From the NCBI GenBank assembly GCA_964387845.1, contig CAYLXA010000011.1, positions 1 to 64,000 of the forward strand: a stretch of DNA of 64,000 bases, written 5' to 3'. This DNA comes from an uncultured bacterium. GTDB lineage: Bacteria > Omnitrophota > Omnitrophia > Omnitrophales > Abzuiibacteriaceae. The notes beneath the pieces were generated by a model. That model saw nothing but the letters and a program-made list of their open reading frames with translations, did no database searches and had not been told where the DNA came from. Shown here piece after piece: positions 9,101-55,414 of the stretch. Numbering within the stretch: the stretch's first letter is position 1; every line of letters starts with the position of its first letter. A program made the position numbers and the translations under genes.

Positions 9101-12100
9101 AATGGAAGAGTTTTTTGCGCGAGCAGCTAGCGCTTTTTGCAGCCGAATGGGTTAAGCTGCCAGGGGAATTGCAAAATTTTTTCCCGGAAGAAACGCATTT
9201 ATTTCAGGAATTTACGGCTGATAATATTCCGGCGGTCAATTTAGACAATTTCTTTAAATTAGCTGCCGTGCGCGATGCCGTGGTTGATTTTATGCCGAAG
9301 CTTAACCAAAGCAGCTCTCTTCCGCAAAATGCCGAAGCCGTTCAGATCCCGGGTTTTAACGGTGCGCTTCTGGATGGCTGGGTGATTCGCGCGGCTGACA
9401 GCAAGCAAGAAAATCATCCGGCGTTTCTGATTTTGCCGCCATGGGGCGATGATATCTCAAAATACGGAAAGCTCGCCGAACTTCTTCATCAAGAGTTTCC
9501 ATCTTTTCATGTGATTGGTTTGGATTACACCAAAGATCCAAATCTCGAAACCATTTTGAATACCGGCGGAATCGCAGAAAGTTTTGATATTGAAGCGGTG
9601 ATTCGCGCGCTTTCCAGATTTTCCGATTTGAAGATTGATCCGTCCAAAATCACGGGCATCGGTTATTCGATGGGCGCTAATACTTTGGCGATCCTGCAAA
9701 AGCGCACCGGGCTTTTGTCTCATTTTGTGCCAATCGGGCTGCACGACAGTTACGCCTCCGTGCTTGCCGGCTATTATGAGAATGTCCATATTCCGCGCAT
9801 TGCAAGAATCGTTACACGCCGGGGCTATTCATTCATTGATTGGACTGACCCAATGATACGAGAGCATGCCAAGCGATTATTGATTGAAGCCAGGCTTCGA
9901 ATGAACCAATTTACTATCGCAAGAAGGGAAATTCCTGTTAAGCCGGAGGATGATCCGTTTTTAGATTTGGCAGAAACCGCATCATCGCTCCAAATTCCGG
10001 TTCATTTTGTATTTGAAGAGGAGTCTGATCTGTTACAGGAAAGCGTTCGTGATTTTTACCGCGCTCTGGCAGGGCAAATGAATGAATCAGGCCGAACGGC
10101 GCAATACAACACCTATCCCGGAAAGCACAACAAGATTGATCCGGCATCTTTGGTCAGCGATCTCAAAACTTTTCTGACCTCTCGTTCCGAATTGACTTCG
10201 GCTCGAGCGGAGCCGAAGACTATTTCGGCATCATCGCAGAGCGCGATGATGTCCGAATTGCGGAAGCAAAATCATTTTATTTTGTTTGTGGCTGGGAGCA
10301 TTTTGTTTTGGGCGGGCTGCTTAATGACGGAGCAAAAACCTGTCAGCGAAATGCCCGCGGAAACGCCAATTGAACAAATCGCCGAAACTTCCGAACCGGT
10401 TACAAACGCACCGGCCGATGATATAAGTGAGCCTGCCGAGATTCAGAAGCAGCCGCGCGCACCGCCCAAAAGTGAATTTGAGACTTTGCTTGAAGCTTTA
10501 GAAACAGGAAATGACGACGAGCGCTGGGATGCCGCCAAGACGCTCAGCCGTTCCGCCAACTCTGCCGCAAGCGGCACATTTTTAAAAGCGCTTCAGGATT
10601 CCAATAGTTTGGTCCGCCGCGAAGCCATTATTTTCTTCCGCTATCACCATGATCCGCGAGCACCGAAAGTTTTGATCGAGCTTTATCGCAAAGAACTCGA
10701 TTTGGGCATTCGATCCGACATTGTCGAAACATTGGGAATTTTGCAGAGCGCCGAAGCCGTTTCGTTTCTAATCCAACGGATCAAACGGGAAGACGGCGCC
10801 GCTTTCTATGTTTTAAAACGCGCGTTGGTCCGTATCGGCGTTCAAGCGATTGAGCCGCTTATCGATGCGATTCGCTTTGAATACAACAAAGAATTGGCCG
10901 CTAAATATGAAGAAACCCTTCGGGAAATCTTCAGAAATCCGGACGCTGCCGAACAGCGCAAAAAAGCGGAGAAACACTGGTACGAAGCCGTCCGCCGCGC
11001 CGCGCTCGGAATTACCAGCCGTTCAGAGCTTCGTAAATTTCACGAACCAAAACCGCAAGCAAGCGGCGTGGACGCGGGCATTTATATTGAAGGGTTAGAG
11101 AAAGTAATTCGGGCGAATCGGTTCAGCGCGCTTCGCTATGACCGAACGAAAAAGCGCTGGGTCATGACTTCCATTTTGATAGATGGAAAGAAGCGCAAGG
11201 GCCTTCTGCTGTCTAGGAAGCAACTCGATGGAGTTAATCTTGCTTTTAGTACGCTTCATCAAAAACTACAAAAGGAAATGACGGAAAAGTCGAATGCACG
11301 CATCATTTTTGTTAAAGGTTTGATGCCTATATTGGGAAACCACATGCCTTGGGTTCAGCGCCCGGCCGGCCTGAGCGGTTTTTCGAAGCCGGATTTTATT
11401 CTTGACCGCAATGCTGCTTACAATCCTCTGGCTTTGTTGGATCAATTTGAATATGAAATCCGGCGTAAGCGCTTGATGGCCGGTCAATTTTCTCCTGCGG
11501 AGAAAAGAGAATTAATCAGAAACCCAAACACTTTTGATTTGCGCGTTAAATTCAAGCAGGTTTATCTGGAAGCTCATGCTCAGTTGATTCAGGATAATGT
11601 TATAAATTCCAGAGATGAGCTTTCGTTCTACGATTCAACCCAGAGAACGCGCCTGCTTGAGCTTGTGATTTTGCAAGCTGCGCAGGAAGCGACCCAAGTT
11701 CGTTACCGGTCTGTCGAAAACGCTTTAAAAGCACTTGATGAGGCAGCCAAGGATGGAAATCATTCAGGACATCAAGTCGCAATTGGTATCTTGGCCTTGC
11801 ATGCATCTGACATTGCAGCCCGATTAATTAAAAAATCCGATAATGAGTCAATCAAGATCGCCGCACTGGACTATATTGCATCGGCGCTTATTGATCAAGA
11901 TACAGCTTCCCCAGCAATAGAGATTACTGGTGGCCTTCATCATGAAATCCGAAATATTCTAACCAATTCTAAAAACCCCCGGCTTAAAGCTGCCGCACTT
12001 CAACTTTTCACAGTCTTGATTTATGTTCAGCTAGTAGATTCGAACGAGAAGCTTAATGCGCTTGAATATCATTATGCCAATCTCGAACTGGTGATCAGAA

Positions 12101-15100
12101 GCCTGATTCCAACTATCCGTCAAATGGCGCTGACGGAGAAGAACGCGCTCTTAAGATCTCATGCCATTATTTTCTTTCTCGCTCTGTCTTTGCGGTATCC
12201 TCAGTTCAGAGGAAGCCGAAGGACGTTAAAACGCTTAGCGCCCGAATTGGAGCGGTATGTGCTCGAAGGGAAGGATTCCAACATGACTCAAACGGGTATT
12301 TTAGTTCTTGAGCATCTTTGGCGTCAGTTAGACAAAAATCCGGAGCGCTTCGAAACATTTATCAGCCGGTATATTTTCGGAGAAAACCATGCGCCGACCG
12401 GAATTCGGCGTACTGAAACTTATTGGGCGGGCAAATTAGCGCACTCCGAAATCTCGGAAAAGATGCCGACTCTGGACCGGATTCTGGCTAACAATGATCA
12501 GTTATCTCGTTTTCTCACTTTTCTTTCCGTTATGCGGCTTGCTTATCCTTATAGCATGATTAATGGTAGTTATGAGCGCCCGATTGCTTGGGCTAAGAAG
12601 AACCAAAAGATTTTTAAGCTCGACGAGCTCCGCATTGCGTTTGTCAGTGAATCATACCGCCGCCATATTATTTTTACGGAAGACCAAAGTCTTGCACTCG
12701 AAATAAAATTCCCAGGCGAACGCGCTTCAAGCGGCGATGTTTCGAAAATTCACGTGACATTGGCCGAAAAGTTGCGGCAGCAGCCTAAGGGTGAAACGGT
12801 GGTCAGCGAACCACTCTTTTTTATAGGTTTGAAAGGGTTATTCAATCTTTATGGCCCCCGGGAAACCTCGATTGAATATAAAGAATTTCCTTTGGGAATT
12901 GTGGGGTTCCGGTATCAAGACTCGAAACGTTTGCGTAATGTGCTTGAAGATAAAGAATTGTGGCAAGCATTTGTTGAGGAAGCTTATGGGCCATCGGACA
13001 AGTATCAACAAAAGGCCTATGTGCGGATTGCTGCGGATTTAATTATTTTTGCACTCAAGATTCATGAATTGGGTTATCAGGCCAGCACGCGCCGCCTAAC
13101 GGATCTTCACCTTGAAAATTTTGCGCTGTTGCCCGACGGCCACGTTTTTTCCGTGGCTGATTTCGGAATTTATTCCCGTAGCGGCAGCCGTTTAACCAAA
13201 TTCCGTAAAAGAAAAGAAACAAGCGGCCTGCTTGCTGCATTAACGGCTTACAAAAGCAGTCTCATTAGCGCTTGGGACAATCCGACATTTGTCATGGAGG
13301 TCGTTGACGCTGTTTTGGTTAAACTTTTAACAGGCGTTACCGATCCGGCAGAAAGAACAGAAATCATTCTGCGTGTCTTTGGGGAAGTGCGGGATATTTT
13401 TGAAAAAGTCGGCATTTCACCGCTATTCGAGGATGCGCTTGTGCGGGCTTGGGATGTTAATCAAGAGCCGGATGGATATGAAGTCCGTCAAAAAATTGCA
13501 AAATCCATCATTTCCAGATCGGTTATCGCTATTGGAATCGCATCCGATGCGTGGTCTGCGCTTCGATACGACAAAGATCAAGAAAGATTGATTACATCAC
13601 CGCTTCCGGACGATCTTGTGCATCGATTCTGGGATCATCCGGAATTGTTGCAACCGCTAGAACCGGTATTGCTAAGTGATAAAGAAGTTAATCTTCTCGA
13701 TAAAGCTTTCAAGCTTCTGCCTGAAGTGGATCGAAACCAGTTTACGTCGGATCCTAATTCTATGATCGTGTTAATGAAAGGAATGGATGCGCACATTGCA
13801 GAATCAACGATTGATTTCAAAAGATTGACGAACCCGCACGCCTATCACGACTTGGTGTCACCGCGTTTCTTTTTTGACCAGCGGCTGATCAAAGACCCGT
13901 TTGAATTCATGAAAATACTTCACAACGAGATCAAACTGCGGAATGCGATTCTTCAGAGTTTAACCGAAGATGAAATCGCGATGCTAAAAAACCGTCATTT
14001 GCCGGCTGAGCTTCAATCGAAAATCATGAAAAAAACACAGGAAACCAGAGATTTGCAGTGGGACACTTACTTTCGATCAGCCGGAAAGCAAGAACCCAAT
14101 CAAGAACAATTAAGTCTTTTGGAGGACCTTATTGTCTATGGTGCGCAGGATCATTTGCATAAAACATTCGAGTCTCCCGCAGAAGCTTTGTTGGCATTAG
14201 CAAAATCATTAGGAGAATTGAAAGGCGCTCAAAAGAAACGAACTCAAGATTTTCTATTTTACATTCACAACGAAATTTTATCTTTGATTCTGCTCAATCC
14301 AGATGCGGACTTAGATTTAAGAATATCGGCGGTTGTCTATGAGATAGAAAAGGCCAAGTTAGAATCGTTTGCGCTTTTGACTGCCGAGCCATTGGCACGG
14401 CATTTGGAGCGTATCTACGACCGGCATAAAAACGTCCGGCTGCGTGTTGTAATTCTTCGCTTCCTAGCAATTGTTCATGAGCAAGTTGAGCGGGAGATGA
14501 GAGATAATTTAAAGTCAGGGGACAATTTAGTTAAAACTCGTTACGTCGTCGAATCGATTGCCTGGAGGATGGCAGTCGGCGTTTTGAAAAACAATAAAAG
14601 CAAACGTGTCGAAAAGGAGATCGTTAAACTTTTGCTGCAGCTTTTACGGCCTTATGCCGCGGTCTCTCAAAAACCGAATCATGGGCAGTTACGTCTGCTT
14701 CTTGAGGAGGCTGTGATTTACATAAACCAGAATATCGAAAAAGATCCTTCAAAGGAAAAAAACAAGCTGCTTGCCCTGGCAATTTTAAGCAGGCAGATTC
14801 CGATTGCAAGCGACTATTTGGAAGCTGCGCTATTGCGGTATATTTTCGATTCAGATGACATTAAAGGAATACGGATGCGAAAGTCTGGCTATCCGGCGAG
14901 CGATGCTATTCAGCCTTTTGAACAAAGCATGCCCACGCTTATTCAAATATTGAAAAACAAGCAGTATTTAGCGCGTTTCATGGTTGCGCTCAGTATTTTG
15001 CGTGAAGCTTTTCCGTACCACGTCCCCAATTCGCATGATTTTAATGAAGACCTGCTTGAAACCGTAGAAACCAGTGGCGCCGTGCGGCTGAAAGAGCTCT

Positions 15101-18100
15101 TAATCGCGCCGCTTATGCATGAATATTCAAGCCACTTGGTTTCCACAGAGGACGGCCGCAATGTTTTGCGGCTGGTGATTCCGGGCGATTCTGTGCGGCA
15201 TTTTAGTAACCATCTTCGGAAAAATCATGTAGGCAAAAGAAATTTATTATTTTTTATTCCCATCCTCGGCGTCCCATTTTTGTATGGAGCTCTGGATTCC
15301 CATCGACTTTCGGGGTTTGCGGGTTACCGGGAACGCGCCAGTGAAGGTTTGACCATGAAAGAAATCAGAAGGCGTGAAATGATGAATGATCGGATTCCAT
15401 CGTTGGTCAGGACGATCTTGACGCACTTTGGCCAGAAGTATGATGCATCGGCGCTTCATGAAGCATTGGTTCGTCAGGATGTCAATCAGATCACAAAACT
15501 CATCTTCAGCGATGAATATTATCAAGATTTCAAGCAATGGCTGCTCAATTATATGCGGAACGTTTTTCATATGGAAGAAAGCGAAGTTCCGGATGCCTTC
15601 CGGCGTGCTTTAAAACAATACTTTGAGAAGAAAGAATCGCTAGGCCGCACAGAAGCAGCCGTAAAAAAATCAGCAGAAGGAAGCGACGCTCAATCAAAAT
15701 CCCGTTCAGAGCTCAGGGCAGGTGAGTTGTCCGCGGAAGTCCAATTGGCCAATGAGATCACCAAAGCCGTCACAAATTTTGCATTGTGGAAATCATCGGA
15801 ACACAAAATGTCGGTCTCTCGTCAGCAAATGCAAGGCTATAGAGATGCGCATCGGGAAGCGGATGCTTTGGTTAAGGCCGGAATCAAAACTTTGTTACTT
15901 TCCAGGGAAAGGGCAAAGCTCATTCAAGCTCGAACTGCAGTTCAACAGGCTATGAACCAGAGCGGCGTGACGGCAAAGGCAAAGAAAAGATACGAGTTTT
16001 ATATTGGGTTGCTCAATCAAGCCACCGAAAATCGTTCCGTCCCGACTCACAATAAAACGCCGGATCAGACTTCCGTTGAATATCCTCGCAATTCTTCAAT
16101 GAAAGCCAGAGCCGAGTTGCGTTCGAATCAAGCGTATCTTTGGAAATCGAAAATTACATTGGAATTGGCAAGCCCGGCCGGGAAGCCGGACGCTCCTAAA
16201 CGGTATATATTTGAAATAGAAGGCCGCAAATTCATGACGTTCGATGATCCTGATTCGGCCATTGAAATTGTGGGCGAAAGAGCGACCGATCTTGGTGTGC
16301 ACGATCCTTTTCTCAGTATTATGATCACCGAATTGCTGCCGTGGATTTTTGTTGAAAGCTTCAAAAATAGGAGGGTACGCCAACCAGACGGAAATTTTGC
16401 GCTTCAATTTCCGGAACTTGATTCCGGAGAAAAAGATATATTGGAAAGCGAAGTGCAGGTTGCTTTTGGTATTGGGAGTCAGCCGAGTTATGTTGCGTTT
16501 GGCCCCCGATGGTATCGCTTACCCGAGCGCGAATCGATTAATCAGATTGTCAATCAGGCCACCGATAGTTTTGCAGGTGATGATTCAATCGAAAAGCGTG
16601 CAGTGCCGGCTTTGGTGACTTTGGTCAAAGTTTTGAATGACGAAAGCCGAAGCGATGTTGAAACTTACATCGAACAGAAATTTGGTCCGCATGAATTCTT
16701 AAAACGTATGCTGACTTCCGAGAGAGTTACAAAAAACACTTTTTTTGATTTTGTCCGCCGTAATTTATTTTTGGAGCGGATCGGTGAAAAGTGGTTTCCC
16801 TACGGCCTATATACAGATACTAGGCGGTCTGAGCTAAGGCATGATTTTCGCTTTCTCCTAGGAATAGAGCGCGAAGAAGAAATGCAGAAAATCTTCGACA
16901 AGATTAAGCGGGGAGATTCCAACGACATCGAGCAAGCCTTAGGTTCCTTGATTGATTTTATCGGTACGATTCCCAATTTTTTAGATGACCGAAAGTGGGC
17001 GGAATTAAGGAAGTGGATTGCCCGGAATGTGGTTGGCAGCATCAATGTTTCATCTTTTAATACAGCCGGTATTCAAGATTTACTTATCCGTTTTTACAAT
17101 ATCCTGCCGGGCCCTACGACATTGGCTCTGTCTGCTTCGCTGGATGATGAAACCGAATTTGGTGAGCGCATATTTATATTAACTTTCTTATTAGCGGGTA
17201 TTCAAGAATCCGAAAACATAGCAAAGGTTGTATTGCGCAATCGTGTTTTTCAACGAGAAGCAAGCCGGCCAAAAACCGATAATGAAGCCCAGCTTTTTAA
17301 TCAAATTCACCAAGCAATCGATAGAAAAATTAAAGATCAGGCTTCGCCTAGCCCGGCTGCCGGGGAATTATCCGACCCACGATCTGAGCTTCGGATTGCG
17401 TTTACGGATGAGCTTCATCCGGAATTGTTAAGCAGGGAATTTGCAGACGAAAATTCGATCCGAAACAATTTAATAGAGGTTATGAGCGAGCCCAAGACTC
17501 GTGTGGAACTGTTGGGAATTAAAACAGGCGAGTTCATTCAGCGCACGATGGGCAAGATGCAGGTTGTTTTCGAGAAAACCGGCGAACGGGTCGATTCCCT
17601 GACGGGTGAACATGTTATAGAAATCGAATTTAATGTGATTGCGACAAAAGTTCATACCGAGTCCGGAACTATCGAAGCGCGAACGAAACCAAACAGCCGG
17701 TTGTTTGAAGGGCTAAATGCCGGTATCGTGCCGGAAATTAAAATTCGTTTTAACACGGCAATGACGAACGGGATTCGTGCGGTCAATGCGCGCCACGGGG
17801 AAATGGACGAAATTTTCGCTTCTCAAGTTCCGGATTTGGCGAGCGGTTTGGAACGTGTCGGACCCATTGCGGGCCATGATCTTATTTTCGGTGAGGATGG
17901 ATCGCCGCTTTTTGCGGAATATTTTCTTAAAAGATTCGGCGTTCTGGCCGTCGTTACGAGTTCACAAGCTGAAGAAGACTTTTTAGATCCGATCCGGGAT
18001 GACTTACAAAACGGGGAAGTGTTGATTGTCGCTCAAAGTTTTGAAGAAGCGCGCTTGGAACTTAGGAAAAGGGGATTTACGAATCAATTATTGCTTGTTT

Positions 18101-18249
18101 CCGAGTTTGATTTCGTTTCTGATTCGGTTAAGTCACGGGCCTATCAAATGAAAGTCTTCAGCAGGTCTGAAATGCGGCGGTTGCTTTCGGTTGTGGAAGA
18201 GGCAGCCATTCAAATCCGTTCGGAGCTCCGGACAGCCGTTTCGGCGTAA
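172..18249 (+). CDS. giant multi-domain membrane protein (6025 aa): N-terminal signal/TM, HEAT-like repeat arrays, acyl-CoA dehydrogenase-like domain, alpha/beta-hydrolase domain, APH/kinase-like motif, multiple TM clusters; recurrent SRSELR motif
   Basis: Single uninterrupted ORF from the six-frame track. Domain-level similarity in one frame throughout: ACAD motifs (PEEFGGSGLS, LNGTKRFITN, FEGMNDV), hydrolase GYSMG nucleophile elbow, HEAT-like AAAAYA repeats. The likely true start is ATG at 181, preceded by GGAAGGA; the TTG at 172 is the track start. A hydrophobic N-terminus (IIFLKVVAITLCFTFSVTSTIAYG) suggests a signal peptide or anchor. Stop is TAA at 18247-18249. Confidence 0.8.
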   Translation: MEGMSNYPPARIMRSQIIFLKVVAITLCFTFSVTSTIAYGDSSVIIESFKHNAWHVTPAFPGNKPAQLLDFARKADLVVASGRAELRAKELQATSLKLQSDPSALKVLKPEAEESRSELRNEEGELMKRPRARRDAREDAAEIEPAVETEAVVQAEDAEINYNHFAQRIINEPVGKLLIDKSMVEQIGKLNVPQFKQMFYMDVGALNAYFVLYTMIKENRELNPAIHDHILTEEAKEREKTAAADKAVQAKAQEQEVTARDTASKVKLVEKKRAKSQKKEAGIDTIERVQLAPVEATKLTQGLFRRTLSKYKQLWKQIRQNNLDKKDRALVMATNIMLLGGAAFSTMLWVSTDFGKYAAWFGYLSTVFLSEAGLPLFVNFVGTIDEMVLDVKAVNATERFIESLDRFEEFFRRMPLNPITEKGLIKGIRSLPAEIQLELKKISEGKDWDYRNLEKWYEIRRNQVIRILRKADLVIPGELENAPAWQEEENGGNPRVHRGKLLKLVSEAVNDSRNANRVEEYRKWAEKYKKARTLLRKIKGLNEEEMHLLAVQLTTTSFYGHPELEKRLVRAFSRIEKRQKNADQAVFLDREEGSSYTFSAQGLVDYVAARFRLSESDYDLEIDPVPPDFVNQVRIRSELRISFLQKLAIITTLLTAFFIPNTSKASTIPVGFMPPIDSAYLHSEGVREIRDDEKNVWQYQKYSNLDILTAAAVLNATRESPNASVDAGVIGVFRNERKPLEERILAATVLMLKQKDFKKEAGDFLVKILHDETKPGLDRTMAAAAYARLIDESSHKKTHKFAMDYLVRVLYDADKPYAERLYAASAYALFKAGRDYIDGPNYKTTIEYAMSILVSALHDEEAPVSHRLIAAAAYAGLDDMNFGDTHEYAIRYLKQVYQNPKSQFSNRVTAAAALLAADEYDSEDKFLALMLRLPSFDKKGNVVNERTPVDLLDAIQNGALTDAGAHAVKEKLKTILDEGRLNHDVGLLVRYAEVLENPTAVDFAEIVKLVSAVLPDEENRLEFWFDIAKKVQDPEKFNFNSYVLKNLLTDPVLDPAQVPDQEIMEFLIKNHPDQELRKQLKVRMKESQWQMVKGTQVVYLALVFMVGVGISIQQMKARRRSELRSILIELWNSVQTIARDPIYGPSYAICFGLMAYMVIKFGPRRGSFFPGSSRNIERMIRAKFKNASPSDLDQARTIVKELRDKIEKNLERPHFEIRYVLPAIIQSANSVEQLRKFVESLGVWKDAGWFDRLIGGVLPLSLVGRLGEAPLLVGNPYEKPAIEKAMKGIARAIQSSDEFREGFETVVIFFEKLKQATARKKYFRNESIISPQVAWEELLQKAHQIRMQHGDFTVSFQPEEREIINNRYTDKVLQHQVISVNEPSVASARSVPTHNKMPGTSIDGKVGTAQTSDENSSGSSMKVRAELRQASSRMRAKQERLFTERAASRRIARIDRWFQHYHDDYDMNWNPEFFASKHETFLDRIKTQLRDFEIENEAIDIAIEQSMSILIAGVPGGIIRAFLKRFTNMVHRHIYGPVAVEEINDRMRHFKERIDRSLESAASLDERRRLMKGYRLKHGYLWIDNVRTSFEELPVDHSTASTVKVIGPREMKIHQIAGYFENILHRKRGLLTDQKDHEILKFLVGRLTDSDPWVVKAAVWGINRIADRMDPVLKQFILERYYEILSGNHSEVARGSIARSIREVFNPQSLDVALEMLKTEQTEWVQTYLVEVIQTIVSQSDKKSLRYKHSRDIIEQLLEKAVGDPDAKRSHIMLRVGSIKALAELLWYDPEVLDRLKEMVLTEPDSTIQEAAMWALARLHVATPEGMAQIDSLLETLTAYLESSHAGRKNVFLEQYARQLLFWLQRLSSNRDLKAKILSMKRTNPDFSLTEKIILGALNQIEKYTKRLKLLEHANWIFELFQSAIFRRARSGSARTLTAYHDRLKAQAKRDAVYFSGRAMNPVILLDIDAILPKEGDEAAKASESDHVFDILKSFMDRGWSVVATDRYREERDAAHFNVAQGAEMKLKSKVLRQAIKFLASNRPIRIPSKDWSRGKRHQRMSGLLVPVPDEPIVVLVHGPELWMVKDIMPGTFSGIVSVGDYKDASNGVYLDKLIDAIEKKANGRIVQREPSRSELRHGPEDFVRDETARMVRELVGTFYKKSVYPFAHEIDKGNIRIEDQILEEAAQAGLFGLAIPEEFGGSGLSPILKIIADIIGWYINPSVALSIGVHNSVVKGPIQDYGTEEQKKKYLTKLASGELIGGYALTELEAGSQALSKRFPLQTTAVPVEVDGKQYYKLNGTKRFITNARFAGVFVGFAMLGDERRVFIIDRDLEGVSVGEDEQKSGLKGSSTADLILQDVLVPAENLIPGDGIKIGMSTMSQGRLSIAASALGGSMRIFDDTLEYSKLRKQFGGPIWQFGGVKQTLAEMAADLYAQESVVYAVASLLTEGKVNAAFESAVAKVFVTEKFNHIAQKGVKTHGGAGYISDTPTARIGQDAIVTEIFEGMNDVLYSNVIAALYLKKLMTEGNQVLNISDYGQFYPEIQKLSSLIGQTGKVILGKFGTLTPENQDEYMAFGKMASEFYAIVSAVRRTRKITSEINPDDPKLKHFLDVTRLVVARGTKRIRDEASHFVDPDVFGVSSDQRKYFELTRGIAEHLVVNPPKRIVEFNASNESQSSRAELRLDPVYLVDLTVFGLLAILPSWFALKLTTERYAKRTIDQLYSPAVQEEMDANRSFNVNFLTFFYDRAVHWVRFLVISFLHGFSAWVASYYAFAMYYPAASIFWPLVAAAAAFGASGVSLWIRDKKQVRQKITVAAQIPAKQIHGKFELNFDLVFGFDLRELLDGKTGEEQALQNLRAKVEEQVERIAANKGAVPAEVGKVLVPVTPESFASTGPNFKVEGLRGQFTVRIPRSNINTMHSFPLNVTSVYLGGQKIAVGTVFFEKNKDARSELRSEGAAKSAFSNFLASVPEDSEKWKSFLREQLALFAAEWVKLPGELQNFFPEETHLFQEFTADNIPAVNLDNFFKLAAVRDAVVDFMPKLNQSSSLPQNAEAVQIPGFNGALLDGWVIRAADSKQENHPAFLILPPWGDDISKYGKLAELLHQEFPSFHVIGLDYTKDPNLETILNTGGIAESFDIEAVIRALSRFSDLKIDPSKITGIGYSMGANTLAILQKRTGLLSHFVPIGLHDSYASVLAGYYENVHIPRIARIVTRRGYSFIDWTDPMIREHAKRLLIEARLRMNQFTIARREIPVKPEDDPFLDLAETASSLQIPVHFVFEEESDLLQESVRDFYRALAGQMNESGRTAQYNTYPGKHNKIDPASLVSDLKTFLTSRSELTSARAEPKTISASSQSAMMSELRKQNHFILFVAGSILFWAGCLMTEQKPVSEMPAETPIEQIAETSEPVTNAPADDISEPAEIQKQPRAPPKSEFETLLEALETGNDDERWDAAKTLSRSANSAASGTFLKALQDSNSLVRREAIIFFRYHHDPRAPKVLIELYRKELDLGIRSDIVETLGILQSAEAVSFLIQRIKREDGAAFYVLKRALVRIGVQAIEPLIDAIRFEYNKELAAKYEETLREIFRNPDAAEQRKKAEKHWYEAVRRAALGITSRSELRKFHEPKPQASGVDAGIYIEGLEKVIRANRFSALRYDRTKKRWVMTSILIDGKKRKGLLLSRKQLDGVNLAFSTLHQKLQKEMTEKSNARIIFVKGLMPILGNHMPWVQRPAGLSGFSKPDFILDRNAAYNPLALLDQFEYEIRRKRLMAGQFSPAEKRELIRNPNTFDLRVKFKQVYLEAHAQLIQDNVINSRDELSFYDSTQRTRLLELVILQAAQEATQVRYRSVENALKALDEAAKDGNHSGHQVAIGILALHASDIAARLIKKSDNESIKIAALDYIASALIDQDTASPAIEITGGLHHEIRNILTNSKNPRLKAAALQLFTVLIYVQLVDSNEKLNALEYHYANLELVIRSLIPTIRQMALTEKNALLRSHAIIFFLALSLRYPQFRGSRRTLKRLAPELERYVLEGKDSNMTQTGILVLEHLWRQLDKNPERFETFISRYIFGENHAPTGIRRTETYWAGKLAHSEISEKMPTLDRILANNDQLSRFLTFLSVMRLAYPYSMINGSYERPIAWAKKNQKIFKLDELRIAFVSESYRRHIIFTEDQSLALEIKFPGERASSGDVSKIHVTLAEKLRQQPKGETVVSEPLFFIGLKGLFNLYGPRETSIEYKEFPLGIVGFRYQDSKRLRNVLEDKELWQAFVEEAYGPSDKYQQKAYVRIAADLIIFALKIHELGYQASTRRLTDLHLENFALLPDGHVFSVADFGIYSRSGSRLTKFRKRKETSGLLAALTAYKSSLISAWDNPTFVMEVVDAVLVKLLTGVTDPAERTEIILRVFGEVRDIFEKVGISPLFEDALVRAWDVNQEPDGYEVRQKIAKSIISRSVIAIGIASDAWSALRYDKDQERLITSPLPDDLVHRFWDHPELLQPLEPVLLSDKEVNLLDKAFKLLPEVDRNQFTSDPNSMIVLMKGMDAHIAESTIDFKRLTNPHAYHDLVSPRFFFDQRLIKDPFEFMKILHNEIKLRNAILQSLTEDEIAMLKNRHLPAELQSKIMKKTQETRDLQWDTYFRSAGKQEPNQEQLSLLEDLIVYGAQDHLHKTFESPAEALLALAKSLGELKGAQKKRTQDFLFYIHNEILSLILLNPDADLDLRISAVVYEIEKAKLESFALLTAEPLARHLERIYDRHKNVRLRVVILRFLAIVHEQVEREMRDNLKSGDNLVKTRYVVESIAWRMAVGVLKNNKSKRVEKEIVKLLLQLLRPYAAVSQKPNHGQLRLLLEEAVIYINQNIEKDPSKEKNKLLALAILSRQIPIASDYLEAALLRYIFDSDDIKGIRMRKSGYPASDAIQPFEQSMPTLIQILKNKQYLARFMVALSILREAFPYHVPNSHDFNEDLLETVETSGAVRLKELLIAPLMHEYSSHLVSTEDGRNVLRLVIPGDSVRHFSNHLRKNHVGKRNLLFFIPILGVPFLYGALDSHRLSGFAGYRERASEGLTMKEIRRREMMNDRIPSLVRTILTHFGQKYDASALHEALVRQDVNQITKLIFSDEYYQDFKQWLLNYMRNVFHMEESEVPDAFRRALKQYFEKKESLGRTEAAVKKSAEGSDAQSKSRSELRAGELSAEVQLANEITKAVTNFALWKSSEHKMSVSRQQMQGYRDAHREADALVKAGIKTLLLSRERAKLIQARTAVQQAMNQSGVTAKAKKRYEFYIGLLNQATENRSVPTHNKTPDQTSVEYPRNSSMKARAELRSNQAYLWKSKITLELASPAGKPDAPKRYIFEIEGRKFMTFDDPDSAIEIVGERATDLGVHDPFLSIMITELLPWIFVESFKNRRVRQPDGNFALQFPELDSGEKDILESEVQVAFGIGSQPSYVAFGPRWYRLPERESINQIVNQATDSFAGDDSIEKRAVPALVTLVKVLNDESRSDVETYIEQKFGPHEFLKRMLTSERVTKNTFFDFVRRNLFLERIGEKWFPYGLYTDTRRSELRHDFRFLLGIEREEEMQKIFDKIKRGDSNDIEQALGSLIDFIGTIPNFLDDRKWAELRKWIARNVVGSINVSSFNTAGIQDLLIRFYNILPGPTTLALSASLDDETEFGERIFILTFLLAGIQESENIAKVVLRNRVFQREASRPKTDNEAQLFNQIHQAIDRKIKDQASPSPAAGELSDPRSELRIAFTDELHPELLSREFADENSIRNNLIEVMSEPKTRVELLGIKTGEFIQRTMGKMQVVFEKTGERVDSLTGEHVIEIEFNVIATKVHTESGTIEARTKPNSRLFEGLNAGIVPEIKIRFNTAMTNGIRAVNARHGEMDEIFASQVPDLASGLERVGPIAGHDLIFGEDGSPLFAEYFLKRFGVLAVVTSSQAEEDFLDPIRDDLQNGEVLIVAQSFEEARLELRKRGFTNQLLLVSEFDFVSDSVKSRAYQMKVFSRSEMRRLLSVVEEAAIQIRSELRTAVSA
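2395..2950 (+). other. tandem ~47-aa HEAT/ARM-like repeats (motif R..AAAAYA.L.D....YA..YL..VL.D...P, 4-5 copies) inside giant ORF
   Basis: Repeated protein motifs AAAAYARL / AASAYALF / AAAAYAGL / TAAAALLAAD at regular ~46-47 aa spacing in the translation. Confidence 0.5.
4336..4455 (+). repeat. intragenic direct repeat copy 1 (encodes SVPTHNKMP...SSMKVRAELR) in giant ORF
   Basis: About 90% nucleotide identity to 16034-16122 over ~90 nt (cgttccgtcccRactcacaataaaaYgccgg ... cagacttccgWtgaa ... ttcttcaatgaaagYcagRgccgaRttgcg). Copy 1 has a ~30-nt insertion. Confidence 0.75.
6655..7745 (+). other. acyl-CoA dehydrogenase (ACAD)-like domain embedded in giant ORF
   Basis: The translated segment KSVYPFAHEIDKG...FEGMNDV carries canonical ACAD N-, middle- and C-domain motifs: GLFGLAIPEEFGGSGL, GGYALTELEAGSQ, LNGTKRFITNA, GGAGYISD, FEGMNDV. 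It begins directly after SRSELR copy 4. Confidence 0.75.
9350..10140 (+). other. alpha/beta-hydrolase fold domain (serine hydrolase, GYSMG nucleophile elbow at 9661-9675) embedded in giant ORF
   Basis: HPAFLILPPWGDD...HVIGLDY...GIGYSMGANTLAIL... followed later by Asp/His candidates (HFVFEEESD..., PGKHNK). Typical order of an a/b hydrolase with a G-X-S-X-G motif. Confidence 0.6.
10500..10870 (+). other. PBS-lyase/HEAT-like repeat module in giant ORF
   Basis: ERWDAAKTLSRS...LVRREAIIFF...PKVLIELY...IRSDIVETLGIL...AVSFLIQRI resembles E-Z type HEAT repeats. Confidence 0.4.
12990..13180 (+). other. protein-kinase-like (APH/LPS-kinase/ELK superfamily) catalytic-loop + DFG motif in giant ORF
   Basis: ...ADLIIFALKIHELGYQASTRRLTDLHLENFALLPDGHVFSVADFGIY. 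DLHLEN (13102-13119) matches the HGDLHPGN/HRDLKPEN catalytic loop (D...N). ADFG (13156-13167) matches the DFG metal-binding motif at canonical spacing. Confidence 0.4.
16034..16122 (+). repeat. intragenic direct repeat copy 2 (encodes SVPTHNKTP...SSMKARAELR) in giant ORF
   Basis: See copy 1 at 4336-4455. Near-identical nucleotide stretch despite otherwise unrelated flanking sequence. Confidence 0.75.
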
Positions 18250-18254
18250 GATTA

Positions 18255-18332
18255 GTGGTAAGTGGTAAGTTGTAAGTAGTAAGTGATAAGCAATTCGAAT
18301 AACTTAAAACTTACCACTTATCACTTACAACT
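18255..18332. terminator. heptamer-tandem inverted-repeat hairpin (gtggtaa gtggtaa gttgtaa gtagtaa gtgataa ... cttaccacttatcacttacaac) between convergent genes; probable bidirectional terminator/structured element
   Basis: Five tandem GTNNTAA heptamers at 18255-18290, a ~20-nt loop, then the reverse-complementary degenerate heptamers at 18310-18332. It lies 6 nt after the giant ORF stop and 5 nt before the stop of the convergent minus-strand gene. Confidence 0.55.
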
Positions 18333-18336
18333 GAGA

Positions 18337-18666: not shown

Positions 18667-18917
18667 AACATTCTCCTCTTTGGTTTGGCGTGGAGGAGAG
18701 GAGAGGTTTATAACAGAAAAGCCGGGCTATGTCAATGAAGTAAATATAGAAATATAAAAATTAATATGATTAATATTTATTTTTAATCCTGGACGGCCTT
18801 GCGCAACAAATTTCGTGCTTTTTTTGTCAATTTTAGGTAAAATAACTTCTCTTTCGGCTTCCCCTGATAGTTTCGTATGGGTTATGTCTCAGTAGTTTGT
18901 GCGGTTTTTTAATTGAT

Positions 18918-18976
18918 AAATTCAAAATTCAAATATCAAATCTCAAAATTTTGAATTTTTAATTTTGAAATTTGAG
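18918..18976. repeat. left arm of ~55-bp perfect inverted repeat flanking permease gene
   Basis: The reverse complement of 18918-18976 (…ttcaaaattcaaatatcaaatctcaaaattttgaatttttaattttgaaatttgag) matches 19905-19960 essentially perfectly. Confidence 0.8.
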
Positions 18977-18994
18977 TTTACGGTCATTAATTAC

Positions 18995-19900: not shown

Positions 19901-19962
19901 AAATTCAAATTTCAAAATTAAAAATTCAAAATTTTGAGATTTGATATTTGAATTTTGAAATT
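19901..19962. repeat. right arm of ~55-bp perfect inverted repeat (intergenic between the two permease genes)
   Basis: Reverse complement of the 18918-18976 arm. Confidence 0.8.
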
Positions 19963-19967
19963 AAATT

Positions 19968-39193: not shown

Positions 39194-39220
39194 TTCGGTT
39201 AACTGAAGTTACAAAATTTA

Positions 39221-39253
39221 GGGGCAGTCCTTCGGGGCTGCCCCTATTTTTTT
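39221..39253. terminator. rho-independent terminator (ggggcag-N10-ctgcccc + T8) after glnK, abutting the lpxB 3' end
   Basis: GC-rich 7-8 bp stem followed by tattttttt. A second perfect small hairpin cagttaa-ttcgg-ttaactg (39187-39205) spans the glnK stop. Confidence 0.7.
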
Positions 39254-39255
39254 CT

Positions 39256-46069: not shown

Positions 46070-46642
46070 ATGCAAACCGCAACTTCTGCCAAATCTGTTC
46101 TCGATGAAACCCAGAACCGCATGCAAAAATCCGTTGATGCGACCCATAGCGAATTCCGCAGTATCCATACGGGCCGTGCTTCCATTGCATTGGTCGAAGC
46201 TATTCCGGTTGAGTGCTACGGATCATCCAAGCCGCTAAAAGGTATCGCGTCCATCACAACGCCGGATGCTAAGACGATCAATATTCAACCTTGGGATCCG
46301 TCGATCATTAGCGCAATCGATAAGGCCATCGTCAAAGCCGAGCTTGGCTTGGTTCCTTCAAATGACGGCCGCGTGGTTCGGATTAAAATTCCGTCACTGA
46401 CGGCAGAGCGGCGCAAAGAATTGGATAAAATTATTCGCAAAATCGCAGAAGACGGGCGCGTTTCAATCCGCAACATCCGCCACGAAGCAAATGAAGCGGT
46501 GAAGCGGCTTGAAAAAGCGAAGACGGTCAGTGAAGATGAATCGCGGGGTACTCAGAAAAAAGTTCAGGAGGCCACCGATCGCTTTACGAAAATGGTTGAT
46601 GAGCTTCTGGCGAAGAAGGAAGTTGAAATTCAGGAAGTTTAA
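46070..46642 (+). CDS. frr: ribosome recycling factor
   Basis: Canonical RRF sequence (…IRNIRHEANEAVKRLEK…). Confidence 0.9.
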   Translation: MQTATSAKSVLDETQNRMQKSVDATHSEFRSIHTGRASIALVEAIPVECYGSSKPLKGIASITTPDAKTINIQPWDPSIISAIDKAIVKAELGLVPSNDGRVVRIKIPSLTAERRKELDKIIRKIAEDGRVSIRNIRHEANEAVKRLEKAKTVSEDESRGTQKKVQEATDRFTKMVDELLAKKEVEIQEV

Positions 46643-46647
46643 AGACA

Positions 46648-46778
46648 CAGTATCTAGTATCTCGTATCTAGTATCTAGTTGAACTTATTATTATATGAAT
46701 AGATATTGTTTCTTTCACGTTTTCCTTCCGTTCAATTCTTTACTAGATACTAGATACCAGATACAAGATACGAGATAC
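46648..46778. repeat. large imperfect palindromic element built from tandem GTATCT-N heptamers (arm 46648-46678; inverted arm 46743-46778)
   Basis: Arm agtatct agtatct cgtatct agtatct; inverted arm actagat actagat accagat acaagat acgagat. Same architecture as 18255-18332 and 55337-55414. Confidence 0.6.
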
Positions 46779-46787
46779 GGAAATAAC

Positions 46788-46861
46788 GGGCCCATAGCTC
46801 AGTCTGGTAGAGCACTGCCCTTTTAAGGCAGGTGTCGTTGGTTCAAATCCAACTGGGCTCA
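46788..46861 (+). tRNA. tRNA-Lys (anticodon UUU)
   Basis: Cloverleaf GGGCCCATAGCTCAGTCTGGTAGAGCA-CTGCC-CTTTTAA-GGCAG…GGTTCAAATCC…; anticodon loop CTTTTAA. Confidence 0.85.
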
Positions 46862-46865
46862 ATTT

Positions 46866-46958
46866 GATTTCGGATTGTGGAGTGCAGATTGAGAGAATAG
46901 ATTGATGATTGTTGATTCCGAAATCCGAAATTAACAATCCGAAATTGTATAATTTGTT
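46866..46958. repeat. inter-tRNA inverted repeat with tandem TCCGAAA heptamers (gatttcggattg ... caatccgaaatt)
   Basis: atttcggattg at 46866-46877 pairs with caatccgaaat at 46934-46945. Tandem tccgaaa tccgaaa ttaacaa tccgaaa. Confidence 0.45.
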
Positions 46959-46961
46959 AAT

Positions 46962-47035
46962 GTCCCCATCGTCTAGCCTGGTCAGGACAAGAGCTTTTCA
47001 AGCTCTCGGCAGGGGTTCAAATCCCCTTGGGGACA
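46962..47035 (+). tRNA. tRNA-Glu (anticodon UUC)
   Basis: GTCCCCATCGTCTAGCCTGGTCAGGACA-AGAGC-TTTTCAA-GCTCT…GGTTCAAATCCCC…; anticodon TTC. Confidence 0.8.
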
Positions 47036-47051
47036 CTTTTCTCCGGTATTC

Positions 47052-48266
47052 ATGCCAAAATTTATTCGCTCAAACCTGATTATTTTTGCTGCGGGGTTTT
47101 TGCTCATCTCTATTTTTTCCACTATTCGTTACGAACGGTTTGCATCGAAACGCCAGTACGGGGATTTTCACGTTTACTATGTAACCGGTGAACGGATGCT
47201 GGCAGGCCAATCGATTTATGTCGATGAAACCGAAAAAGTAACGCCCTATAAATATTCACCGCTCACTGCATCTTTCTTTTCCTTACTCGCACTTTCAAAC
47301 GAAAGAACCGCAGCCGGTGTTTGGCACTGCCTCAATCTGGTCTTTTTGCTGGTAAGCGTAATCGCCGGGGGAGGGCTTGCGCGAAAAATTTCAGACGGTC
47401 ACGGAAAATATTTCGTTGCATGGTCTTCGATTTTAGCCGTTATCGGAATTTCGCCGGCCATTCTCCATTGCATGAATTCGGGGCAGGTGGGAATCGCGAT
47501 TTTATTTTGCTATGTGCTGGGCGTTTATTTCACCTCCCGCGATCGGGACATCGCCGCCGGATTTTTCTTTGCGCTATCGTGCATGTTTAAATATCTTCCG
47601 ATTTTGATTTTGCCTTATTTTATATGGCAGAAAAAATGGAAACTGGTTTGGTCTATGATCGGCTGGCTGTTTGTGCTTCATTTTTTGCCGGCGCTTTGGC
47701 TCGGCTGGGATATCAATCTTCGGTATCTCCGGCAATTTCTTCCGTTTTTGACCGGAACCACGCTGGATCATATTTCTCTCCTGGATTTCAAAAATCAGTC
47801 CATGTGGGCGTATTTATACCGGCTGTTTTTCTATGATTTGGGCTTGTTTGAAATCAGAAATCACCCGCACTGGATCTTAGCTTTCGGGGCAATCCTATTC
47901 ACCGCGCTTTACGGACTTGTGATTTCTAGGACGCGTAGAGGATTTCTAGTGCTAGGCTGTTCGTTGCTGGCAATTTTGATCGTGATCTTCAACCCTAATG
48001 CTTGGAAGCATAATTTTGTCCTCTTTTTGCTTCCATATCAAATTTTACTTGCCGCGGCGCTGCAGCTTGGTTGGCAAAGCCGGCAAGCCACGCTTTTGAT
48101 GCTGGTCAGCATCTTATTTTTCGCCTCAAACCAGTCTCTGGTCGGTTGGGGCGGCCGGTTGGAACTGATGTCTTTATCGATTTTGCTTCTGGCCGGGCTG
48201 GTTCTATTCGCCGGATTGCTTCTCAGCCGGTTCCCTCAGGATCCTGCCCCAAAACACAACCTTTAG
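47052..48266 (+). CDS. polytopic membrane protein, DUF2029/GT87-like glycosyltransferase family (tentative)
   Basis: About 11 TM helices. N-terminal GDFHVYYVTGERMLAGQSIY motif resembles GT87/DUF2029 mannosyltransferase-like proteins. No SD. Confidence 0.5.
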   Translation: MPKFIRSNLIIFAAGFLLISIFSTIRYERFASKRQYGDFHVYYVTGERMLAGQSIYVDETEKVTPYKYSPLTASFFSLLALSNERTAAGVWHCLNLVFLLVSVIAGGGLARKISDGHGKYFVAWSSILAVIGISPAILHCMNSGQVGIAILFCYVLGVYFTSRDRDIAAGFFFALSCMFKYLPILILPYFIWQKKWKLVWSMIGWLFVLHFLPALWLGWDINLRYLRQFLPFLTGTTLDHISLLDFKNQSMWAYLYRLFFYDLGLFEIRNHPHWILAFGAILFTALYGLVISRTRRGFLVLGCSLLAILIVIFNPNAWKHNFVLFLLPYQILLAAALQLGWQSRQATLLMLVSILFFASNQSLVGWGGRLELMSLSILLLAGLVLFAGLLLSRFPQDPAPKHNL

Positions 48267-52049: not shown

Positions 52050-52066
52050 TTTTTTGGAAATTTGAA

Positions 52067-52258
52067 TTATTTCGGAACGGCGCCGTCAAGTGTCTCGAAC
52101 ACAATGGTGACGAGGCTGTGGCAGCGCGGGCACTTGATTTGCTTGAAAGCTTGGATGTTGTCGTGTTTGGGCCGGTACATAATGCTCAAGATCTTGGTTG
52201 AGAACTTGGCTTCTTCGCCGGACCACTGACAGGATGTACAAGCGTATGTCTGTTTCAT
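52067..52258 (-). CDS. small zinc-ribbon protein (CxxC…CxxC), hypothetical
   Basis: 63-aa ORF convergent with surE. Cys pairs CTSC and CPRC. No clear SD. Confidence 0.35.
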   Translation of the reverse strand: MKQTYACTSCQWSGEEAKFSTKILSIMYRPKHDNIQAFKQIKCPRCHSLVTIVFETLDGAVPK

Positions 52259-55336: not shown

Positions 55337-55414
55337 GCTTCAAGCTACAAGACTCAAGCTTCAGGCTTCAAGATAGTGCGTTTCTGCTTGTAGCTTGTAG
55401 CCTGTAGCTTGCAG
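55337..55414. terminator. heptamer-tandem inverted-repeat hairpin (cttcaag ctacaag actcaag cttcagg cttcaag … cttgtag cttgtag cctgtag cttgcag) immediately after the leuS stop
   Basis: Same architecture as 18255-18332 and 46648-46778; 13-nt loop. Confidence 0.55.

Follow-up and report, generated by a model that had tools for sequence, protein, structure and literature searches.

Introduction

The intergenic DNA of bacteria has been known since 2007 to hold an excess of heptanucleotide repeats, for which there is no accepted function or mechanism (PMC4692102). The GGGAATC repeats of Xanthomonas form 70-75 convergent inverted pairs per genome, at sites that are conserved between species and with lengths that vary, and their units combine a conserved core with free positions (PMC4692102). 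Other cases are the TAACTGA repeats of Beggiatoaceae (PMC4679880) and the tandem heptanucleotide repeats of Calothrix PCC7601, as cited in PMC4692102. Intergenic heptanucleotide repeats are the closest known kind to the element that we analyse here, a 129-bp inverted repeat at positions 46650-46778, between the ribosome recycling factor gene frr and a tRNA-Lys gene, in a stretch of 64,000 nucleotides (the window; positions 1 to 64,000 of contig CAYLXA010000011.1) from an uncultured member of the Omnitrophota. In cyanobacteria such heptanucleotide repeats are known as STRR. Our literature search found no paper on heptamer or tandem repeats in Omnitrophota or Omnitrophica.

Like the described heptanucleotide simple sequence repeats (SSRs), the element is intergenic and is built of tandem 7-nt units with a core of 5-6 nt and one or two free positions per unit; in both, the number of units varies among relatives, the site and the type (single array or inverted pair) are kept, and inverted pairs can form stem-loops. 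It differs from them in that the known genomes use one or few heptamers genome-wide, whereas here the heptamer is particular to the locus and the lineage; moreover, both arms of a pair switch heptamer together, there is no G-quadruplex potential, and the paired form is the rule (16/26 arrays).

Another point of comparison is provided by the repetitive extragenic palindromic (REP) sequences and bacterial interspersed mosaic elements (BIMEs) of enterobacteria, which are likewise imperfect palindromes in spacers within or between operons, often just past stop codons. REPs stabilise the upstream mRNA against 3' exonucleases, and the role that we propose below is borrowed from them. However, REPs share a consensus over hundreds of copies and are linked to REP-associated tyrosine transposases (RAYTs), whereas the Omnitrophota hairpins share no consensus and have tandem repeats for arms; the hairpins of the window show no mutual sequence similarity, and no search for RAYT genes was made. 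A parallel may also be drawn with the RNase III stems of rRNA operons and of phage T7 early mRNAs, which are long imperfect stems between RNAs of one transcript and whose cleavage would leave a protective 3' hairpin. The tandem-repeat build of our element has no counterpart in those stems.

Results

In the window, frr (46070-46642, plus strand; Pfam RRF) is the final gene of an rpsB-tsf-pyrH-frr run, the order of which is given by an identical Logan contig (SRR15237813). Its stop codon, TAA, lies at 46640-46642, and tRNA-Lys(UUU) occupies 46788-46861 on the plus strand (ARAGORN; Rfam tRNA, 71.4 bits). The spacer of 145 nt between them is nearly all one inverted repeat, in which four GTATCTN units face five NAGATAC units. 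The left arm (46650-46679, plus strand; GTATCTA GTATCTC GTATCTA GTATCTA GT) begins 7 nt past the frr stop and has A, C, A and A as its seventh bases. The right arm (46742-46778, plus strand; AC TAGATAC TAGATAC CAGATAC AAGATAC GAGATAC) is the reverse complement of the left, has T, T, C, A and G as first bases of its units, and terminates 9 nt short of tRNA-Lys. GTATCT is thus invariant in all nine units (9/9), with all variation at the seventh position. Tandem Repeats Finder (TRF) reports period 7 for both arms, with 4.4 copies on the left, 5.4 on the right and a match level of 90-91%, and the G+C content of the arms is 33-35%. Over a length of 30 nt the arms show 93% complementarity, and a shift by one or two units (7 or 14 nt) still leaves them pairing at 90-91%. 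Between them lies an AT-rich centre of 62 nt (46680-46741; 25.8% G+C), which forms the loop of the long stem and holds a pyrimidine-rich tract; in the fold, the inner inverted hexamers TTGAAC (46679-46684) and GTTCAA (46730-46735) lengthen the stem by 5-6 pairs. The element has the three or more tandem 7-nt units in non-coding DNA by which intergenic heptanucleotide SSRs are recognised. The heptamer arms, AT-rich centre, inner hexamer ends and placement between frr and tRNA-Lys had all been claimed in an earlier note on this DNA, and all are present in the sequence.

Folded as RNA, the plus strand of the spacer reaches -44.3 kcal/mol (z = -6.55), and none of the shuffled sequences is as good (0/200). 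The minus strand gives z = -7.10, and a fold with DNA parameters gives z = -5.75. The two-unit pattern GTATCTNGTATCT has 7 matches in the window, all of them within the element, where shuffles give 0.04. From these matches, the complementarity of the arms and the z-scores of the RNA and DNA folds, it follows that the element is real and non-random.

We compared the window with the syntenic rpsB-tsf-pyrH-frr-[spacer]-tRNA-Lys regions of relatives, which we denote by locus numbers and for which Frr identity is given relative to the window. The Frr homologues are labelled Omnitrophica, and the nearest named relatives are Candidatus Omnitrophota/Omnitrophica metagenome-assembled genomes (MAGs). 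At the same site, CGTATCT/AGATACG inverted arrays are found in five relatives: L037 (Frr 91%; GTATCTC GTATCTC GTGAAGC GTATCTC ... GAGATGA TAGATAC GAAATAC GAGATGC), L038 (87%), L044 (75%; one unit on the left and three on the right), L046 (73%; with a centre of 110 nt) and L165 (73%). A further relative, L043 (Frr 89%), has a matching layout in which both arms are different, GTGAATC vs GATNCAC. Among the relatives of the CGTATCT/AGATACG type the purity of the units varies, as do the left and right unit counts, which are 4+5 in the window, 4+4 in L037 and L038, 1+3 in L044, 4+3 in L046 and 3+2 in L165. In all lineages the stem fits the spacer closely, with 0-7 nt between the stop codon and the stem and 6-9 nt between the stem and the first nucleotide of the tRNA. 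Identity at third codon positions of frr is 48-59% among the closest three. Since diverged versions stand at the identical place in relatives with Frr identities of 73-91%, inheritance has been vertical: the element is old, is passed on within a clade of genus or family level with a variable number of units, and is not a recent insertion.

More distant loci were obtained by a metagenome scan with Frr alignment, in which the matches listed are mostly distant relatives; the 439-kb JGI contig, which is not among them, entered the comparison through its exact protein. The Frr proteins of L050-L065 are 62-83% identical to Omnitrophica-labelled proteins vs 52-58% to their cyanobacterial counterparts, and the assignment of L066 and L067 is ambiguous. 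Among the matches listed, several distant lineages carry inverted arrays of unrelated heptamers directly after the frr stop; a few nt separate these arrays from tRNA-Lys or from a partial copy of the 5' end of that gene. In the frr-tRNA-Lys spacer we find TACGGCG/CGCCGTA in L057 (a locus of 52% G+C, with a loop of 19 nt), ATTAAGA/TCTTAAT in L053, AATTCAA/TTGAATT in L056, CGAATGA/TCATTCG in L067, AAAGGCA-type units in L066 and AGAGAGT in L058, where the contig terminates. In L050 and L052 frr is followed by a conventional G+C hairpin and then a T-run, in L051 by a long G+C hairpin, and in L059, L062, L065 and L167 tRNA-Lys starts only 2-21 nt past the frr stop.

Do the two arms change independently? 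For each spacer we took the initial 42 nt and the final 48 nt and paired them within and between lineages. Pairing between arms of the same spacer averages -27.1 kcal/mol, whereas arms taken from lineages with different heptamers reach -11.8 kcal/mol (standard deviation 5.6), which indicates that both arms change together. This concerted change of heptamer is seen in at least 6 lineages. The frr-tRNA-Lys spacer is thus a natural time series, with one site, one architecture and at least 6 unrelated heptamers whose arms are always matched, and it follows that what is maintained is the pairing and the 7-nt period rather than the sequence.

Apart from these spacers, L082 (unknown phylum, Frr 43%) carries GACGAAT-type arrays at at least 4 sites within 12 kb, including 1500-2013 and 11089-11118; they make up a dispersed family with a single heptamer, and the unit is shared with the frr spacer of L067.

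Conservation of the spacer is unusual in one pair of relatives. L037:8515-8659 and L038:10574-10718 are identical at 139/145 positions (95.9%), whereas the genes of these two loci are 78-87% identical (coding about 83%; 59% at third positions of frr) and their other spacers 26-80%. All six differences are confined to the right arm. The L037/L038 spacer is about 61% identical to that of the window, the centre 36-58%, and in more distant lineages the centre is unalignable. The L037/L038 identity can be read as lateral exchange, or as a sign that the centre is under strong, lineage-specific constraint and is now and then replaced as a whole; if it is not the product of exchange, it hints at a sequence-specific role of the centre.

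The frr spacer is one site among several. In Omnitrophota-like loci (304 kb, window included) we count 26 period-7 arrays, or 8.6 per 100 kb, and 0-8 arrays for each of the other periods from 4 to 12; period 7 is the only enriched repeat period, and 16/26 arrays have an inverted partner within 200 nt. In 972 kb from other phyla, period 7 occurs at 2.2 per 100 kb, about as often as the coding-related periods 6, 9 and 12, and 6/21 arrays have such a partner. The heptamer-hairpin habit is enriched in Omnitrophota and not exclusive to them. Within the window itself period 7 is the commonest of the scanned periods, with 12 raw hits (none for periods 4-6, 8 and 10, five for 9, and one each for 11 and 12), and self-similarity at lags of 7, 14 and 21 is raised in intergenic DNA and not in coding DNA.

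The earlier note had placed the element in a class of heptamer hairpins, and further period-7 inverted pairs in the window bear this out, all on the plus strand. AGTNNTA units and their complement form a hairpin at 18252-18335 (z = -6.86), 2 nt past the stop of an open reading frame (ORF) of 6025 aa and between convergent genes. AAATTCA faces TGAATTT at 18917-18980 (z = -2.91), ending 15 nt 5' of the start codon (ATG, 18995) with which the first ABC permease gene opens, and AAATTCA-type units recur at 19901-19965 (z = -3.30), where two ABC permease genes are 70 nt apart and the units take up that spacer. From leuS to a GH35 gene, the spacer is occupied by CAAGCTN units (55337-55412). The note had also reported a second heptamer inverted repeat between tRNA-Lys and tRNA-Glu(UUC) (46962-47036, plus strand; ARAGORN; Rfam tRNA). 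It is present at 46866-46947 in a weaker and degenerate form, GATTNNG vs CCGAAAT, with arms 79% complementary and z = -2.83; GATTTCG GATTGTG GAGTGCA GATTGAG ... stand opposite TCCGAAA TCCGAAA and two copies of AATCCGAAATT. GATTNNG units 3' of tRNA-Lys are common to the window, L038 and L050, and in L037 the tRNA-tRNA spacer has a non-heptamer hairpin in place of the heptamer hairpin. Each window hairpin has its own unit (AGTNNTA, AAATTCA at two sites, GTATCTN, GATTNNG, CAAGCTN), and no one heptamer is reused at many loci among them; the members are alike in architecture and in the 7-nt period, not in sequence. We discarded a period-7 stretch at 440-472, which lies within the coding sequence of the giant ORF, and the remaining structured spacers of the window are ordinary G+C hairpins.

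At the surE gene, L037 has a heptamer hairpin after the gene (13939-14005; AAATTCA/AAGTTAA units), the window retains only the last ~18 nt of a hairpin of that type (AAATTTGAATTATTTCGG, at 52050-52075), and L038 has two G+C hairpins instead (16197-16270). This site is a clear case of turnover of hairpin type at one position. Separately, the giant ORF itself (172-18249, 6025 aa) has an N-terminus resembling a signal peptide, and Pfam gives no match in its C-terminal 999 residues.

The note had further described the element as MITE-like (a miniature inverted-repeat transposable element), to be checked by a search for additional copies and target-site duplications. By blastn-short, neither the element nor its centre has a second copy in the window, which is the 64 kb of this genome that was searched, or among 128 loci (~1.3 Mb); among the loci searched, GTATCTNGTATCT is confined to orthologous frr spacers. 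The flanks AAGACACA and GGAAATAA share no direct repeat that could be a target-site duplication, and none surrounds the element (...TTTAAAGACACA, element, GGAAATAACGGG...). The one relative with an Frr identity of 73-91% that is without the element, L002 (Frr 74%), has a different spacer sequence of 48 nt and not a clean empty site. The note had named a single-copy element, unstructured in related genomes, as the outcome that would speak against it; the element is indeed single-copy in the window and the 128 loci, but hairpins are present in the relatives.

Other class assignments fare no better. Like an intrinsic terminator, the hairpin stands directly 3' of a stop codon, and relatives have terminator-like hairpins at the same position; unlike one, it has a stem of low G+C, a loop of 62 nt and no U-tract, and we reject this identity, as does a consensus scan that finds no intrinsic terminator at 46643-46787. 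A canonical intrinsic terminator does occur at 39218-39254 (GGGGCAGTCCTTCGGGGCTGCCCC followed by T7), between convergent genes, which means that the organism also uses standard terminators. Rfam 15 at gathering threshold finds only 4 tRNAs in the whole window, and a permissive search of 46560-47080 returns generic long-hairpin hits below threshold, such as MIR1883 at 31 bits vs 128. A viral origin was considered and rejected: the three-unit pattern GTATCTNGTATCTNGTATCT matches 36 viral contigs (L129-L164, several of them giant-virus MAGs), which look unrelated, and in those with several GTATCTN matches the spacing is 21 nt, so that we take these arrays to be in-frame coding repeats.

We also asked whether the spacer holds a promoter. 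The scan of our annotation tool finds none on the plus strand. A laxer sigma-70-like scan of 13 orthologous spacers gives matches of 8-9/12 at inconsistent positions; in the window the best candidate towards the tRNA is TTGAAC-17-GATATT (8/12), which is not conserved in relatives, and the L037/L038 candidate, TTTAGA-16-TATTCT, would place a transcription start at the right arm's edge. A promoter in the centre is accordingly rejected as a supported feature and retained below as part of a rival explanation. The best promoter-like match in the spacer as such is GTGAAA-17-TATAAT (10/12) at 46690-46718 on the minus strand, antisense to frr and directed away from the tRNAs.

Discussion

Our analysis gives good support to the view that the element is a long stem-loop, specific to its locus and inherited vertically, with inverted heptanucleotide microsatellites as its arms. 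Equally well supported is the view that it exemplifies a habit of the Omnitrophota lineage, in which spacers are filled by tandem-7-mer hairpins with a 7-mer that differs by locus and by lineage. How could such a structure be built, and what might it do? The best overall explanation, to which we give about even chances, is an inherited stem-loop with heptamer arms that is built by slippage and lies on a common transcript of frr and the tRNAs, in which it would serve as a 3' barrier or processing stem. Replication slippage with a 7-nt preference would expand and homogenise each arm, and the pairing of the arms would be kept by selection or by arm-to-arm copying, that is, by template switching within the quasi-palindrome. 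Tandem arms that slide by 7 or 14 nt remain paired, so that units can be gained or lost with the stem intact. The element would probably be transcribed within an rpsB-tsf-pyrH-frr-tRNALys-tRNAGlu co-transcript, in which a stem of ~35 bp would close the 3' untranslated region of frr. A cut by RNase P at the 5' end of the tRNA, 9 nt past the stem, and/or a cut by RNase III in the stem could then part the mRNA from the tRNAs, leaving an frr message that ends in a hairpin and would block 3'->5' exonucleases, by analogy with REP and with the RNase III sites of phage T7. A protective 3' hairpin left after cleavage is how both of these work, and it is from them, and from the position of the element, that we infer a role at the level of RNA. 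In the several relatives where tRNA-Lys abuts frr (2-21 nt) the two must be co-transcribed; with four such relatives, and with centres that hold no conserved sigma-70-like promoter, frr-tRNA co-transcription is plausible. The heptamer hairpin is, moreover, interchangeable in position with ordinary hairpins, as seen after frr in L050, L052 and L002, between the tRNAs in L037 and after surE in L038.

A number of observations weigh against this explanation. No U-tract follows the stem (the tail is GGAAAUAAC / GGAAATAAC), and the loop, 62 nt in the window, ranges over 47-110 nt, which together make intrinsic termination unlikely. Fold energies on the two strands of 16 spacers are mixed, the minus strand being equal or better in several lineages, and the mismatches in 19 hairpins comprise 18 G:T vs 11 A:C (not significant) and 68 of other kinds. 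One family member (18917-18980) lies in a 5' leader, so not all members are 3'-end structures. The hairpins are also dispensable in some close relatives: L002 lacks the frr element and has in its 48-nt spacer a small GGGG...CCCC hairpin, L166 and L167 (Frr 68-69%) lack it too, and at the leuS site, where L037 has CAAGCTN units between leuS and the GH35 gene, L038 has no spacer at all. Finally, L037 and L038 agree at 108/108 positions over the left arm and the centre (76 nt in this pair), which simple selection for pairing would not predict, and it is on account of this identity that we keep a promoter or operator, and a small RNA, among the rivals at low probability.

The absence of a sense-strand bias, the mismatch counts and the dispensability of the hairpins make a purely mutational origin a serious rival. 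Here heptamer slippage and palindrome-templated repair would fill spacers that tolerate it, and the products would persist as harmless, functionless by-products; we hold this to be possible, though not what we would expect. Correction of quasi-palindromes by template switching is a familiar process, and a by-product of this kind would sit well with hairpins that are patchy among close relatives, that occupy the whole spacer (the alternative state between leuS and the GH35 gene being no spacer), that favour neither strand in stability or wobble pairs, and that let one position per heptamer vary freely. Polymerase slippage has, in addition, been proposed as the cause of the intergenic heptamer excess in bacteria (PMC4692102). 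What such an origin would leave unaccounted for is the persistence of the frr hairpin at one site over Frr identities of 73-91%, with third positions of frr in the closest three having dropped to 48-59%, and the joint switch of both arms in at least 6 lineages. It also fits poorly with the ordinary hairpins or terminators that hold the same positions in other lineages, and with an L037/L038 spacer far more conserved than the other spacers or the genes of these loci.

The remaining rivals give the element a different identity. An unlikely one is a DNA-level regulator of the tRNA-Lys/tRNA-Glu operon, with a promoter and UP element in the centre and with arms that are operator-like sites or a supercoiling-sensitive cruciform. 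The AT-rich centre, fully conserved between L037 and L038 whose genes are ~83% identical, would suit this, as would the weak promoter-like pairs in the window and in L037/L038, the invariance of 6/7 unit positions in all nine window units and the symmetric stability of the two strands. Yet those promoter candidates reach only 8/12, differ in position among relatives and are absent in L043, L056, L057 and L066, and the 19-nt loop of L057 has no room for a promoter. With heptamers that change from locus to locus and from lineage to lineage, one DNA-binding protein cannot serve them all; repeats of 7 bp set successive sites on different faces of B-DNA, and a centre of 62-110 nt makes cruciform extrusion unfavourable. 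More improbable still is a processing stem around a small RNA encoded in the centre, like the RNase III-cut stems of rRNA. That a long stem encloses an insert of 47-110 nt, perfectly conserved between L037 and L038, is what one would look for in such a case, but the centre is only 36-58% identical between the window and this pair and cannot be aligned further out, it has no Rfam match beyond the generic long-hairpin hits far below threshold, and in L057 it is only 19 nt. Least credible of all, and rejected here, is a MITE that was inserted next to the 5' end of tRNA-Lys. The size of 129 bp, the inverted ends and the neighbouring tRNA gene are those of a MITE, L002 is without the element, and the near-identical spacers of L037 and L038, set among diverged genes, could mean lateral spread. 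Against these stand the single copy in the window and the 128 loci, the lack of a target-site duplication, ends that are tandem microsatellites pairing in several registers and so unlike a transposase-type terminus, orthologous, diverged versions in six syntenic relatives, and the other hairpins of the window, which share with it only the period of 7 nt; the earlier idea of a mobile insertion does not survive these comparisons.

Returning to the inherited heptamer-arm stem-loop, its main interest lies in the concerted switching of the heptamer in both arms at one orthologous site. A broader claim, which we put forward as a rather doubtful conjecture, is that Omnitrophota carry a class of intergenic hairpins, not described in any paper we found, whose locus-specific heptamer arms expand, homogenise and switch heptamer in concert. 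Were this true, it would imply a dedicated mechanism, either templated copying from arm to arm or a factor that binds RNA or single-stranded DNA with a 7-nt register, and it would offer a testable handle on the long-unexplained heptamer excess in bacterial intergenic DNA. The frr-tRNA-Lys spacer is a defined locus at which slippage with arm-to-arm copying could be tested against selection on an RNA stem. For annotation, we suggest that elements of this kind not be labelled as MITEs, terminators or small RNAs.

Additional observations on the tRNA region

The surroundings of the tRNA genes vary among the compared loci. tRNA-Glu(UUC) lies 3' of tRNA-Lys on the opposite strand in L044, L046, L166 and L167 and is co-directional in the window, L037 and L038, which amounts to a local inversion in the tRNA cluster between the two groups. 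In L038, an 18-nt direct repeat of the tRNA-Glu 3' end (CAAATCCCCTTGGGGACA) bounds an insert of ~105 nt (10944-11090) that the window and L037 do not have; inserts like it also occur 3' of tRNA-Lys in L044 (3845-3975), L062 and L167. The L038 insert looks like the footprint of a small element integrating at tRNA 3' ends.

In many Omnitrophota, partial copies of the tRNA-Lys 5' end (GAGCCCGTAGCC... or a GAGCCCGTCC-hairpin) stand 5' of the real tRNA-Lys; we find them in L046, L047, L053, L054, L056, L066 and L166. A 75-nt unit that opens with such a piece of tRNA-Lys is present once in L046 (10745-10819) and twice in L047 (10745-10894), on contigs that are otherwise identical, and is therefore polymorphic in copy number.

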